Source of the DNA: a virus
Lineage: Duplodnaviria > Heunggongvirae > Uroviricota > Caudoviricetes
IMG/VR virus record: IMGVR_UViG_2534681979_000007
Reading direction: 5' to 3' (one strand)
Length of the DNA stretch: 7,161 bases
The notes beneath the pieces were generated by a model. That model saw nothing but the letters and a program-made list of their open reading frames with translations. It was not told the origin of the DNA and searched no databases. Every line of letters begins with the position of its first letter. Positions within the stretch are counted from its first letter, which is position 1. The position numbers and the translations under genes were made by a program. Of this stretch, positions 175 to 7,161 are shown piece by piece.

Positions 175-1167
175 ATGGAGCAGCAGCGACTCCAGTTGCA
201 GAAATACAACCAGCGACGGCTTGAGTATAACGATATGATTGCCCATAGCCAGCCACTAATGGAAGCGCTTGGAAAAGCAATTGAGGCTGGCGATCAGGAG
301 GCTGCAACGCGTCTGTTCGGGCAGCTGCCAAAGGGACATCCATTAATTCTTATGTCAAACGAAGGCTATGCAGCGAAAGCGGGTCAGGCCGTGATCAACC
401 TGCAAAAAATCTTTGGTGATAAGCCGGACATGGCGATCGATTCGCTGAATACCCCGGAAAATCTCGATGTGCTTTCCGGCGTGTTTGCCCCGGAACTACA
501 ACAGCGTATTGGCATGCCTGATTCAACCGGGGAAAAAACGATAAAAGAGGCCAGGATTGGCAGTATCGTACCAGCGCAGCAGGAAGGGTACGTACTTATT
601 GGCCTTGATCTCACATACAGCGATGGCTCCACCGCGCATAAACCTGTAACAGAATACGGCAGTGCGCACCCTGATGATCAAACCGTGCTGGCGATACCCG
701 TTGATAAGGCTATCGCTCAGGTCAGGGATCGCAGCAAATTTGCAGAGATATCGAAAAATTATGGTTATTTTATGCCGAAGCAGCAGGGACTTTCTCTGAA
801 AGAGCTTCAGAAGGGGGCCAGCAACGTAGCGGCGGACGCGATCAAGAATGGCGGTAATGCTCAGGCTGCGGTGGATGAATATTATGCTGCGACTGGTTCA
901 CAACCGCATCAACAGAAAATTCAGCAACAAAAACTTCAGCAACAGGTTATCAACTGGGCGGGAGATGATCCTGATAAGCTGTCATTTGCCAGAAATGTAG
1001 CGGCCCGTCAGCCTGAAATGCTGGAACCTCAGAATCAGAAATTGCTGGAGAACGGGTATGCGAATTTTCTCCGTATTCAAAAGGCCAGGGGGGAACAGGC
1101 CAGAGATGAAAGTGCTTCATCTGCATCTCAGTTTATCCGTGGACTGAAACAGAATTACGCCCAGTAA
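175..1167 (+). CDS. Hypothetical protein, 330 aa, hydrophilic with a Gln-rich segment; first gene of a three-gene co-directional cluster
   Basis: Complete ORF in frame 1 from the six-frame track. Frame 1 has tandem stops at 58..63 and no ATG/GTG/TTG between 64 and 174, so ATG 175 is the first available start. The Shine-Dalgarno upstream of 175 is weak (ctgggt). The ORF ends at TAA 1165..1167 and is followed 34 nt later by a hairpin plus T-tract. No recognisable catalytic motif seen by eye. Confidence 0.7.
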   Translation: MEQQRLQLQKYNQRRLEYNDMIAHSQPLMEALGKAIEAGDQEAATRLFGQLPKGHPLILMSNEGYAAKAGQAVINLQKIFGDKPDMAIDSLNTPENLDVLSGVFAPELQQRIGMPDSTGEKTIKEARIGSIVPAQQEGYVLIGLDLTYSDGSTAHKPVTEYGSAHPDDQTVLAIPVDKAIAQVRDRSKFAEISKNYGYFMPKQQGLSLKELQKGASNVAADAIKNGGNAQAAVDEYYAATGSQPHQQKIQQQKLQQQVINWAGDDPDKLSFARNVAARQPEMLEPQNQKLLENGYANFLRIQKARGEQARDESASSASQFIRGLKQNYAQ

Positions 1168-1200
1168 TTCACGATATTCCATTAATACCATTTCCTGATG

Positions 1201-5000: not shown

Positions 5001-7161
5001 CCGGGTGAGGTGGCAATCAACCTGACAAAAGGTAACGGACCGGGGGCGCTGGCCCACGAATGGTTCCATTCACTGGATAATTATTTTGGTCGTTATGATG
5101 TTTCCACTGACGGGAAGATCACGTCAGGTGGCGACTATATGACGGAAGCACAGCGTGCCGGGCGCGTATTTAAAGACGGCAGGTATGTTGATGCGGAATA
5201 TCCGGTACGTCAGGAGGTTTACGACGCGTTTAAAGGCGTGATGAAAGCCATTAACAGCAGTGACATGTTGCGTCGTTCTGAACGCCTGGATGGCGTTCGT
5301 TCAAAACCGTACTGGTCAACGGATGTTGAAATGGCGGCGCGAGCCTTTGAGCGTTATGTTCAGGATAAAGCGCGTATGGCTGGCGTGGAGAATGATTATC
5401 TGGTCAATATCCGTAAGGCGGATGACCATGGACAGCTGGACACCTACGCTTATCCGACGAATGCAGAACTGGATGGCGGTATTCGTGAGGCATTCGATCA
5501 CTTGTTCCGAACACTGAAAACCCGTGAGACGGACAAGGGAGTTGAGTTTTATTCCCGTAAGGGCGTGACCCGCACACCTGAAGGCAATCTGATTTCGGAT
5601 GTTAACCGCAGTGCGGAAGCCAAAGGCAGTCCGGTCCCGCAGGTTGAAGCTGTTGCCCGTGGCGTGATTAGTGGCATTAAGGACAGTGACCTGAAGGTCC
5701 GCGTGGTGAAGTCACAGAAAGAGGCTGAAGCACTGGCGGGTGAATCATTCGACGGTTACGGCAAGGTGCACGCGTTCTATCGTCCGGATAAACGTGAAAT
5801 TGTCCTGGTGGCGGATAACATCCCTGACGGGCGGACCGTTCGCGAGAAGTTACGTCACGAGATTATTCACCATGCAATGGAGCATGTAGTCACGCCAGCG
5901 GAATATCAGACGATTATTAAGACCGTGCTGAAAACCCGTGACAGTGATAACGCCACCATCCGTGAAGTCTGGCGTAAGGTTGATGCGTCTTATGGTAAGG
6001 AATCACCGGAAGTGCAGGCGGGTGAATTTCTGGCGCATATGGCAGAGAAGCAGCCGATTAAATTCGTGGCGGCATGGGAGCGTGTTGTTGCCCTGGTCAA
6101 AGGGGTACTGCGTCGTACGGGGTTACTGAAGCCGACGGAACTGAACGATATCAGACTTGTTCGCGAAACCATCCGCACGTTAGGCCAGCGTGTGCGGGAA
6201 GGTTACACGCCGCGTGAGGATGGCGCGGACGCATCGTCTCAGTACTCCCGTAGCGGTAAACCTGATCCGTTCAAAGTGCCGGAAGGTGAGGGCGAGCGTT
6301 ATCGTGATGACCTTGCCAGAATGATGAAATCTCTGCGCACAACAGATTTAACGGTAAACATCGGGCGTACGCCGCCGGTATTGCGTCACCTTGGTGCACC
6401 GGATTTGCCGCTGGTTATTTCCCGCGATACTGTGCGGAAGGCCACCAATGGTGTGAAACATGTGGTGCCGATGGATGTTATCGAGAGACTACCGGAACTG
6501 ATGCACGATCCGGATGCAATTTACCGCTCAGCGACAGAAAGAAACGCGGTTGTGATGCTGCTTGATGCCGTGGATAAAAATGGTGATCCGGTGGTGTCAG
6601 CGGTACACATGAAGGCTGTCCGGTCGCGCCTGGAAATCAACAAGGTAGCATCTGTTTACGGTACAGAAAACGGGAAAAAACTGAAGAGTATGGAAATGAC
6701 CGGGTTAACGTTGTACCGGAGAGAAAAATTAAGCCGCGATAACCTTCTGCACAGAGGGCTCCAATTGCCCAAAGGGGAACATTCTTATCGCGGCTCTGCG
6801 GATAAAATACTCTATCCTGAAGATATTCGCAAGGGGCCGTATTACTCCCGCACCAGCAGTCTGACACCGGAAGAGACAATTGCATCCCGTTTTGTGCGCC
6901 AGATGCAGGATAAATTCCAGGTGCTGAAAGCGGTGCAGGAGAATATCCGTAAAACTGGCGGAAAAATAGATGACAGCAATAACGCCTATATGGCTGAAGA
7001 ACTCTTCCACGGGAAGGCGGAAAACGACCTGAACGTAATGAAGGAGCGCTACGTTCAGCCGCTGGCCAAATTGCTGGCGGACTACAAAATTGCGCAGGCC
7101 GATCTGGATGAGTACCTCTACGCCGTCACGCGCCGGAACGTAACGCGCATATTGCGAAAAT
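2037..7161 (+). CDS. Giant multidomain protein, 3'-truncated by the window edge (at least 1,708 aa): N-terminal glycine zipper, long acidic linker, HExxH zincin-like module and a second His cluster; putative polyvalent-type virion or transfer-associated effector
   Basis: Frame 3 (codon starts divisible by 3) verified codon-by-codon with no stop from 5040 to 7161, and read without stop from ATG 2037 to 5040. The track shows no complete frame-3 ORF anywhere in 2000..7161, consistent with one uninterrupted ORF. ATG 2037 is preceded by AGGGG (2023..2027) with a 9-nt spacer. An alternative in-frame ATG at 1971 follows a TAA at 1965..1967 but lacks a Shine-Dalgarno. Motifs read: GAALGAAMGAPFGAVAG (2460..2510), ALAHEWFHSLDNYFGR (5046..5093), LRHEIIHHAMEH (5850..5885). 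Confidence 0.85.
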   Translation, partial: MAAADAVLNADYSELAQSPKFQQTFLSIDADPQHAQLTDRQKMDLAKERVADEVRAQLATDPELLAVNAMAAKLGDAQLFNLVTRGTAKTVKSGIVRNATAQGAINAAQGGYSRYQENTALRETAGMDVSPWEGVADATIEGAALGAAMGAPFGAVAGYRGRRQAAEETAMRDAETVQQDDAAPQPESVDPVAQQRESMQGMNREQLLEQYADADMATEGDASAAHRREAASQLLNELDEQTKRQAVMNELKAKPRSELLEEYRRLSQKEGRTETEEQQFQAIREVIRPQQEVTPEAQSQPENAEDGNGSIYPTVRFRDPNEVRIEINGNGASRPAERIEKVRPDNRYFTDEKSAMGSDVFRNAAATGLKPSVVKKGENQYAVEMDNPAFSEDVATETINTLADGERITDADPMEQPAFMRDPRFRGFTGDDTEVQARLARGNAPTAEELVRSQMAEGDAGPTAQELTERPRLPAPGDIHPGQGYPLPGEVARTPDENQAGRGGRFTTTGEVKGQSFQKGREQAPENAAGRQGEILEGETVRRGLPSPDEQNATAPVREGLPAPESQRGVDMPQPESLPRMVRDSLPELAQQAEARRQTGDNRQTITDVPDTEVPVPVDKPSTHQQVRGAKIEDFGEEIKGAAKHRYAQLAEAMGKTLEDGEYATQPLSKLFPKPDYARLEKEGVDSDTLAMMALYRSEIPTRTSRNMQKWISIVKSGREATAGMLEGKIPAAKLADMMDSKPGLRSMSDTWKLLRTLSALQIDKASGYRVRSGVYSFVGGKRYDPPQMMYSLRDSKGRDLFFSESRDELLKKAKAYFDEQGSRERETPATSADDRITFDVYRHKASGDIFIGYGKNRQKLKGGFESARDAHDYVRTHRDELVNQVKALREVSREEQRNATNRDRTGPERRKGDVSPEQFSDAFGFRGVQFGNYVESPRRQADLNRAYDSLHDLADVLNVPTKALSLNGRLGLAFGARGKGKAAAHYEPGEVAINLTKGNGPGALAHEWFHSLDNYFGRYDVSTDGKITSGGDYMTEAQRAGRVFKDGRYVDAEYPVRQEVYDAFKGVMKAINSSDMLRRSERLDGVRSKPYWSTDVEMAARAFERYVQDKARMAGVENDYLVNIRKADDHGQLDTYAYPTNAELDGGIREAFDHLFRTLKTRETDKGVEFYSRKGVTRTPEGNLISDVNRSAEAKGSPVPQVEAVARGVISGIKDSDLKVRVVKSQKEAEALAGESFDGYGKVHAFYRPDKREIVLVADNIPDGRTVREKLRHEIIHHAMEHVVTPAEYQTIIKTVLKTRDSDNATIREVWRKVDASYGKESPEVQAGEFLAHMAEKQPIKFVAAWERVVALVKGVLRRTGLLKPTELNDIRLVRETIRTLGQRVREGYTPREDGADASSQYSRSGKPDPFKVPEGEGERYRDDLARMMKSLRTTDLTVNIGRTPPVLRHLGAPDLPLVISRDTVRKATNGVKHVVPMDVIERLPELMHDPDAIYRSATERNAVVMLLDAVDKNGDPVVSAVHMKAVRSRLEINKVASVYGTENGKKLKSMEMTGLTLYRREKLSRDNLLHRGLQLPKGEHSYRGSADKILYPEDIRKGPYYSRTSSLTPEETIASRFVRQMQDKFQVLKAVQENIRKTGGKIDDSNNAYMAEELFHGKAENDLNVMKERYVQPLAKLLADYKIAQADLDEYLYAVTRRNVTRILRK

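Follow-up and report, generated by a model that had tools for sequence, protein, structure and literature searches.

The 7,161-nucleotide (nt) stretch of viral DNA analysed here (IMG/VR record IMGVR_UViG_2534681979_000007, referred to throughout as the window) very probably represents the distal end of the late (virion) operon of a Shiga-toxin (Stx) podophage or prophage of the 933W/phi24B type (Traversvirus), and carries two genes of a conserved internal-protein cassette whose products are packaged in the capsid. The first of these, gene 1, encodes a 421-amino-acid (aa) virion protein (gp34 in phage Stx2-86, gp48 in phage phi24B), and the second encodes a giant protein of about 2,790 aa that, judged from its sequence, belongs to the polyvalent proteins as defined by Iyer 2017 (PMC5512222). 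A sequence-only reading of the same DNA had proposed an internal or ejection-protein module, or a module of injected polyvalent effectors, and this proposal is borne out by the LPD5, LPD1 and MuF_C domains of the giant protein, by a zincin module within it, by the virion genes that flank the locus in relatives, and by the presence of the phi24B homologues in virions. Its narrower suggestion, a delivered protease that acts on host-defence or envelope targets, finds no support in these results. The virion-internal and polyvalent identity of the cassette is already in databases and in the literature (Pfam annotation 2017; virion proteomics 2026). All window features described below lie on the plus strand unless stated otherwise.

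Genomic context

In a megablast comparison of window positions 40-7161 with phage records, 186 records were matched at 80-97% identity, almost all of them Stx-converting phages. Among Escherichia coli sequences, 427 records were matched (426 of 5,426 complete genomes), together with four plasmid-labelled records; the locus occurs in up to 5 copies per genome, and the finished record closest to the whole window is 97.3% identical to it. In Stx2-converting phage 86 (Stx2-86; Traversvirus, Sepvirinae), the equivalent stretch ends the virion gene block, which runs through terminase, portal, major head protein, structural proteins, tail fibres, a 566-aa protein that corresponds to the nozzle in phi24B, the needle/tip fibre, lom, gp30-gp33, gp34 (421 aa) and gp35 (2,783 aa, annotated "LPD5 domain-containing protein"), with the integrase gene next. 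The cassette, numbered gp30-gp31-gp32-gp33-gp34-giant in Stx2-86, comes after the tail nozzle and needle genes; the internal-protein genes follow these directly, with lom-type morons standing between in Stx phages. The earlier reading had proposed the flanking sequence as a check, with a chromosomal housekeeping locus as the outcome that would count against it; since the relatives show terminase, portal, major head protein, tail fibres, nozzle and needle upstream and an integrase downstream, with no housekeeping locus, the locus reads as a phage virion module.

Gene count and contracted A runs

The same reading had described a cassette of three genes of 330 aa, 253 aa and over 1,700 aa. Its open reading frames (ORFs) stand, as confirmed by ORF listing and frame scans: 175-1167 (330 aa), 1198/1237-1998 (266/253 aa), and 1968 to the window end, the last giving 1,730 aa counted from the ATG at 1971, with no interruption over those 1,730 codons. 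The number of genes does not stand, because PHROG 616, the A7 alleles and the 421-aa gene point to two; by sequence comparison, the 253-aa and over-1,700-aa ORFs are a single giant gene split by a contraction of seven A residues (A7) to six (A6). For instance, a 421-aa gene followed by one gene of about 2,790 aa is the layout in more than 600 related phage and E. coli records, and the 2,793-position profile PHROG 616 covers the 253-aa ORF with its positions 1-246 and the giant ORF with positions 246-1974. In the alignment of the junction, the sole difference lies between GATAAAAAAATG (A7) in Stx2-86 and GATAAAAAATG (A6) in the window, where the run at 1966-1971 is A7 in nearly all relatives and the 1-nt contraction produces the apparent gene pair. 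The A6 form was found in one of 399 E. coli complete-genome records, in which PGAP flags the gene as "frameshifted", and in none of the IMG/VR contigs by exact-match scan, 30 of which carry the A7 form.

A similar contraction affects gene 1, which occupies 41-1167 (codons 47-421 of the 421-aa protein, PHROG 601), its 5' part being cut by the contig end. The 330-aa ORF at 175-1167 corresponds to residues 92-421, beginning at an internal Met codon, and is 99.7% identical to residues 92-421 of phi24B gp48; upstream of this internal ATG the coding sequence can be followed to codon 47 (window position 41), and the loss of one A from the run at 62-65 puts that part in a different frame. This run is A4 in the window, A5 in the draft genome of HUSEC41 and AAAGA in Stx2-86; the closest draft relative, HUSEC41, reads AATAAAAAC where the window reads AATAAAAC, and the window form was found in none of 363 E. 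coli records.

A reading in which three independent genes are retained, with the 253-aa and over-1,700-aa proteins made separately, perhaps by programmed frameshifting or a phase-variable A tract, could appeal to the frames being open as described, to an A6/A7 tract that is intrinsically slippery and to the same A6 allele in one complete E. coli genome. It is nevertheless very improbable and has largely been refuted already: A7 and a continuous gene are found in 398 of 399 E. coli records, in all 30 IMG/VR contigs and in the reference phages; the A6 allele is a frameshifted pseudogene according to PGAP; one PHROG profile covers both ORFs; phi24B peptides span 93.6% of one 2,811-aa product, whose spectra come mostly from the uppermost gel slices; and a second A-run loss and a homopolymer-collapsed adapter occur in the same window. 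Programmed frameshifting at the A tract was rejected on allele frequencies.

The adapter occupies the start of the contig, where positions 1-49 are a sequencing artefact made up of low-quality junk (1-23) and a remnant of 454 adapter B (24-49). Window positions 24-49 read CTATCCCTGTGTGCTTGCAGTCTCAG and match the adapter (CCTATCCCCTGTGTGCCTTGGCAGTCTCAG) with four homopolymers under-called in 26 nt, and the last 10 nt of the adapter (window 40-49, GCAGTCTCAG) coincide with genuine phage sequence at exactly that point. All megablast matches begin at position 40, with no database match to its left, and the 5' junction of the window was not found by exact-match scan of IMG/VR. Similarly, in the HUSEC41 draft assembly, contig AFPS01000237.1 (artefact at 1-109) breaks off at this genomic point and shows the same adapter, with a long stretch of homopolymer junk before it, and adapter-bearing reads would probably have derailed the assembly at the GCAGTCTCAG site.

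Because the adapter remnant and two minus-one changes in A runs occur together, homopolymer sequencing error in a 454- or Ion-type draft assembly is the most likely cause of both frameshifts. Against this stands the one complete E. coli genome that also carries A6, and the window alone does not decide between error and real mutation. The frameshifts could instead be real, the source being a prophage that is decaying and can no longer be induced, with both internal-protein genes reduced to pseudogenes. In favour of this, E. coli genomes commonly carry remnants of Stx-type prophages (the locus is present up to 5 times in one genome), an A6 allele exists in a finished genome, and the best identity to a finished record is only 97.3%, so that the source is not represented there. 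Such decay is unlikely, given that both lesions are minus-one changes in A runs, that the adapter homopolymers are under-called four times in 26 nt, that the remaining 1,730 codons are uninterrupted and that the gene 1 variant occurs in 0 of 363 records. The technical lesson of the error reading is that a draft assembly with homopolymer errors and with adapter sequence left untrimmed gave rise to the apparent gene boundaries. Separately, the giant gene of Escherichia phage phi191 has been deposited as several separate proteins (534, 385 and 106 aa; BFVD matches), so other public records fragment the giant gene too.

Domain organization of the giant protein

The giant gene extends from 1237 to 7161, past the window end, and supplies aa 1-1975 of about 2,790. 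With the missing A restored, its product shares 95.7% identity with gp35 of Stx2-86 and 88% with gp47 of phi24B, and the gene takes up about 14% of the genome. As the earlier reading had stated for the middle ORF, a Gly-rich hydrophobic segment is present (AVWVAKGVNLIGALVPDMVAGGVA; aa 181-204, nt 1777-1848), with a Kyte-Doolittle peak of 1.38 and with W and GG conserved in distant giants. The features that it had assigned to the giant ORF, namely a glycine zipper, a disordered spacer and enzymatic modules, were likewise recovered: a perfect (GxxxG)4 zipper (GAALGAAMGAPFGAVAG; aa 409-425, nt 2460-2510) with weak Pfam Gly-zipper matches and G positions conserved in the alignment; a low-complexity spacer rich in E, Q, P and R (aa ~440-915, nt 2553-3980), probably disordered by its composition and more divergent between alleles than any other stretch; and a pair of HExxH motifs, at nt 5055-5069 and nt 5856-5870. 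Three Pfam domains are matched above their cutoffs: LPD5 at aa 1047-1190 (nt 4374-4805; E 2.5e-43, 148 bits against a cutoff of 27), LPD1 at aa 1351-1430 (nt 5286-5525) and MuF_C at aa 1740-1829 (nt 6453-6722; E 8e-18, 64.9 bits against a cutoff of 27.6). An LPD38 domain is found by Pfam in the full-length orthologue, past the window end. Together these domains are the hallmark of the polyvalent proteins.

Nearly all nucleotide differences from the HUSEC41 allele fall within window 2000-3140, the rest of the window being almost identical; this patch, mosaic or recombinant within the giant gene, covers the end of the N-terminal module (described below) and the start of the spacer. Long antisense ORFs occur on the minus strand of the window, e.g., 2373-2906 and 4464-5069, and resemble small antisense ORFs that GenBank annotates inside the giant gene of phi24B (HM208303, minus strand 8392-8715, 10867-11247 and 11598-11969). 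These antisense frames are probably not genes, because phi24B proteomics gave only single spectra for such frames.

Metallopeptidase modules

Pfam searches at E<=10 with the sub-regions that hold each HExxH motif returned only noise (e.g., Peptidase_M76, E 0.17); the assignment of two putative metallopeptidase modules draws instead on alignments and, for the first module, on a structure model. Module 1 (nt 4749-5525), of predicted zincin type, comprises His1253 in the motif AAHYEP, the motif HEWFHSLD (nt 5055-5078) and a Glu helix, EMAARAFERY (nt 5328-5357), and includes LPD1. A homologue search with this module recovered many 470-900-aa proteins with LPD5 and LPD1, and in a 48-sequence alignment the His of AAHYEP, HEWFH, the Asp three residues on and the E/R/E of EMAARAFERY are invariant. 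The AlphaFold2 model of giant aa 1040-1440 is confident, with a predicted local distance difference test score (pLDDT) of 89.2 and a predicted template modelling score (pTM) of 0.82, and in it the HExxH helix, the third ligand and the alpha/beta fold of zincins are all present. According to this model, a single metallopeptidase domain of predicted zincin fold, with its catalytic set intact, is made up of the C-terminal end of LPD5, LPD1 and the linker between them.

A Foldseek search of the PDB with the module 1 model found nothing; the nearest structures of the module are MtfA (M90), anthrax lethal factor and the Pro-Pro endopeptidases (PPEP; M34), which are cytosolic or toxin-type zincins. 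From these, module 1 differs in being only 12-14% identical and in two additional residues, a conserved His that precedes the motif and an Asp at the third position beyond it. A His and an Asp so placed form the widespread phage-type metallopeptidase (MPTase) pattern described by Iyer 2017 (PMC5512222), and module 1 fits this pattern. Similarly, the HEXXXH class of MPTase in that article fits module 2 (nt 5703-6155), which by alignment with distant homologues comprises RHEIIHH (nt 5856-5873) and a Glu helix, GEFLAHMAE (nt 6021-6047), and whose H, E, H and E residues are invariant in 15 distant giants.

In metagenome contigs, stand-alone LPD5-peptidase-LPD1 proteins of about 500 aa occur in non-virion mobile-element contexts. 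One such context holds PcfJ, a 1,704-aa Sno-type helicase and H-NS and looks like a conjugative element; another holds an AIPR abortive-infection protein and several metallophosphatases. That these units stand alone in a conjugative-like context argues against a role of LPD5-peptidase-LPD1 that is specific to a tail conduit.

Virion proteomics and proposed mechanism

Virion proteomics, which the earlier reading had suggested as a check, exists in published form for phi24B, in which cryo-electron microscopy and liquid chromatography-tandem mass spectrometry of the same CsCl-purified virions have been combined (bioRxiv 10.64898/2026.04.10.717836), and it detects the homologues of both window genes. 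In that study, the giant protein gp47 (2,811 aa) yielded 10,962 spectra from 422 peptides, with 93.6% coverage and an estimated 19 or so copies per virion, whereas its smaller partners, with copy numbers estimated likewise, were gp48, the gene 1 homologue (421 aa; 1,634 spectra, 64 peptides, 92% coverage, about 30 copies), gp51 (260 aa; 523 spectra, 28 peptides, 81.9% coverage, about 22 copies) and gp50 (161 aa; 129 spectra, 16 peptides, 80.8% coverage, about 36 copies). All four are marked "ND" in the structural model, gp47 and gp48 being invisible in the cryo-electron microscopy map, and gp47 is proposed by the authors as an encapsidated ejection protein (bioRxiv 10.64898/2026.04.10.717836). 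In their gel, most gp47 spectra come from slices above the 80-kDa portal slice, and the gp48 peak adjoins that of the 409-aa capsid protein; with per-slice counts that are resolved per protein rather than per peptide, gp47 and gp48 appear largely unprocessed in virions.

By the mechanism that we propose, release of the needle would let the giant protein exit by way of the tail, either before the DNA or together with it, and the N-terminal module of the protein, with the hydrophobic segment and the glycine zipper, would serve packaging, exit and/or membrane insertion. The downstream modules (the two putative zincin peptidases, MuF_C/PBECR, LPD5 and LPD38) would be cargo acting in the newly infected cell, where the peptidases would most plausibly cut the giant polyprotein itself into working pieces. 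Self-processing by the peptidases of polyvalent proteins is a proposal of Iyer 2017 (PMC5512222).

Several observations weigh against this scheme. The phi24B proteomics records presence in purified virions rather than entry into the host, and for every member of the family ejection is so far a prediction; because gp47 spectra lie above the portal slice, any self-cleavage must be incomplete inside the virion. Membrane insertion has weak support, since a simple hydrophobicity threshold is exceeded by a single segment only, and a phmmer search of PDB sequences with both window proteins gave no matches at E<=1, the T7 and P22 ejection proteins included.

The giant protein could also be chiefly a structural conduit that lengthens the short tail so that it spans the periplasm, its peptidase domain digesting peptidoglycan, rather than a carrier of cytoplasmic effectors. 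This is the proposal of the phi24B preprint, which calls MuF_C a metallopeptidase possibly digesting peptidoglycan (bioRxiv 10.64898/2026.04.10.717836), and it agrees with the conservation of the glycine zipper and hydrophobic segment and with about 19 copies per virion, a number that suits a multimeric tube. The place of the gene after the needle gene also parallels the ejection genes of P22 and T7. However, no lysozyme, transglycosylase or cell-wall peptidase family was detected, Pfam finding no cell-wall hydrolase family in either the window protein or the full-length orthologue, and the nearest structures of the peptidase module are cytosolic or toxin-type zincins. Moreover, the label "MuF-C metallopeptidase" conflicts with the RNase-like fold assigned to MuF_C by Iyer 2017 (PMC5512222); from the sequence motifs and the structure model, peptidase activity would belong in modules other than MuF_C. 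The LPD5-peptidase-LPD1 unit also occurs alone in tail-less contexts resembling conjugative elements, and giants with the same N-terminal module carry methyltransferases, helicases and ParB nucleases, for which a conduit offers no role. Taken with these points, a role chiefly as conduit is rather unlikely.

Constant N-terminal module and proposed variable cargo

Delivery of cargo, the mechanism preferred here, is approached from another side through aa 1-435 of the giant protein (nt 1237-2540), a conserved module that is N-terminal in giants of 1,800-5,500 aa. A word-indexed search with this module reached Escherichia and Salmonella relatives only, the distant ones being reached by an exhaustive HMMER scan, which returned 100 cluster representatives, and in nearly all full-length ones (1,800-5,500 aa) the match covers residues ~1-430. 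Among 15 such giants, Pfam domains comprise LPD38 (9), LPD39 (6), methyltransferases (5), LPD5/LPD1 (4), MuF_C (3), DdrB-ParB (2) and Sno/SNF2 helicases (2-3), and the conserved columns of the module across 15 distant giants include the hydrophobic segment and the zipper glycines. The module may thus be read, from these alignments, as a constant delivery or packaging part joined to exchangeable enzyme arrays. No description of it was found in the available parts of Iyer 2017 (PMC5512222).

The gene order is conserved as well. Of 80 IMG/VR loci whose giant is related to one distant representative, 62 retain nozzle, needle, gp30, gp31, gp32, (gp33), gp34 and giant in this order, and most of the remaining 18 begin inside the giant gene, which leaves the upstream genes outside the sequence; a match to lom is present in only 2 of the 80. 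It is possible, although we hold it only tentatively, that the N-terminal zipper module and four or five small upstream proteins (gp30-gp34) constitute a dedicated podophage delivery system for interchangeable, capsid-packaged effector arrays (peptidases, an RNase-like domain, methylases, helicases and ParB nucleases), which would be threaded into the host and freed by the invariant HExxxH peptidase. If this is true, the system would be a phage counterpart of the cargo logic of polymorphic toxins and type VI secretion systems, and in Stx phages it would do more than extend the tail, acting as a multi-pronged injector directed against defences.

Just upstream of the region equivalent to the window, Stx2-86 gp33 (17602-17853; phi24B gp49) is an 83-aa "bacteriocin" gene whose product has a glycine zipper (Pfam Gly-zipper_YMGG, E 9e-6). 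Its synteny is kept in 53 of 80 distant loci, and the phi24B authors dismissed the protein as a contaminant (6 spectra); gp33 may really belong to the cassette, as a small membrane-active protein.

Comparison with known systems

The nearest known systems are the orthologues gp47/gp48 of phi24B (vB_EcoP_24B), also found in 933W, in Sp5/VT2-Sakai and, as gp35/gp34, in Stx2-86, which share gene order and Pfam content with the window; compared with phi24B and Stx2-86, the window copy has two 1-nt A-run losses, truncation at both ends and a divergent spacer allele. Polyvalent proteins of phages and conjugative elements are a computationally defined class delivered with invading DNA, in which LPD38 is phage-only and MuF_C is PBECR, with an RNase-like fold and an inactive copy in Mu itself, according to Iyer 2017 (PMC5512222). 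The giant protein combines several unrelated effector-type domains in one very large polypeptide encoded among phage late (virion) genes, and it shares with P1 DarB, DdrB and the N4 virion RNA polymerase its size, late-gene place, predicted zincin MPTase hub, MuF_C/PBECR and LPD domains. Unlike these proteins, it has a dedicated, conserved 435-aa N-terminal glycine-zipper module. Giants that share this module carry a DarB-like methylase plus a helicase, or DdrB-ParB, whereas no RNA polymerase, methylase or helicase was detected in the window giant; a polymerase family of the N4 virion type was found by Pfam in neither the window protein nor the full-length orthologue.

The ejection proteins of T7 (gp14/gp15/gp16) and P22 (gp7/gp20/gp16) are encoded just after tail or needle genes, are present in tens of copies, lie inside the capsid and are unresolved in symmetric maps. 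The cassette likewise follows the needle gene and combines several small partners with one large protein, in tens of copies per virion as judged from phi24B. Neither protein gave a functional Pfam or PHROG match to ejection proteins; the fold comparison covered the module at giant aa 1040-1440, gene 1 and the N-terminal module being compared by sequence. In contrast to T7 gp16, the giant lacks a lytic transglycosylase domain, is far larger and has enzyme modules typical of conflict systems.

Intergenic region and start of the giant gene

The 69-nt gap between the two genes holds a terminator-like hairpin (1200-1226), in which a 7-bp stem (GCCCGGC/GCCGGGT; 6 of 7 pairs G-C) is followed by T7. 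This hairpin is kept exactly in 22 of 34 close-relative loci, a comparable one occurs in 5 of 61 distant loci, and an Rfam search found no RNA family. Unless transcription is Q-antiterminated, the hairpin could lower expression of the giant gene relative to gene 1. Read from the sequence, a Shine-Dalgarno GGAG (1229-1232) precedes the ATG at 1237 (1229-1239 together), which equals the RefSeq start in Stx2-86.

The choice of start codon bears on another explanation, namely that the giant is a lysogenic-conversion or outer-membrane protein of the host cell. The GenBank notes of phi24B mention a SignalP hit, the gene lies downstream of lom, and an older annotation reads "probable outer membrane protein / leader peptide"; in addition, Riley 2012 regarded the giant as probably an outer membrane protein, with which anti-lysogen serum reacts. 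This explanation is hardly credible, in that the SignalP call needs an upstream start (MPGHCAGFFYGVC...) overlapping the terminator hairpin, whereas translation from the RefSeq start at 1237, preceded by a proper GGAG, gives no signal-like N terminus. Transcription of the giant gene rises on prophage induction, unlike that of lom (PMC3342100), the giant is abundant in purified virions, and the tail-gene synteny persists in phages without lom (lom match in 2 of 80 loci).

Sequence features of gene 1

Distant homologues of gp34 in IMG/VR loci are 22-35% identical, with an invariant N-terminal G-LA-G-LAGF motif, and keep a central core, GKTI...VTYDDGS...KPVT...PDD. The structure model of gene 1, built on a shallow alignment, is poor (pLDDT 64, pTM 0.40) and was kept out of the fold search. 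After the G-LA-G-LAGF motif, the N-terminal third of the gp34 family (window 41-400) is rich in Q, R, N and D with recurring aromatic pairs (e.g., DFEF, FDY, NY), and this region is predicted, with low confidence, to form one long helix.

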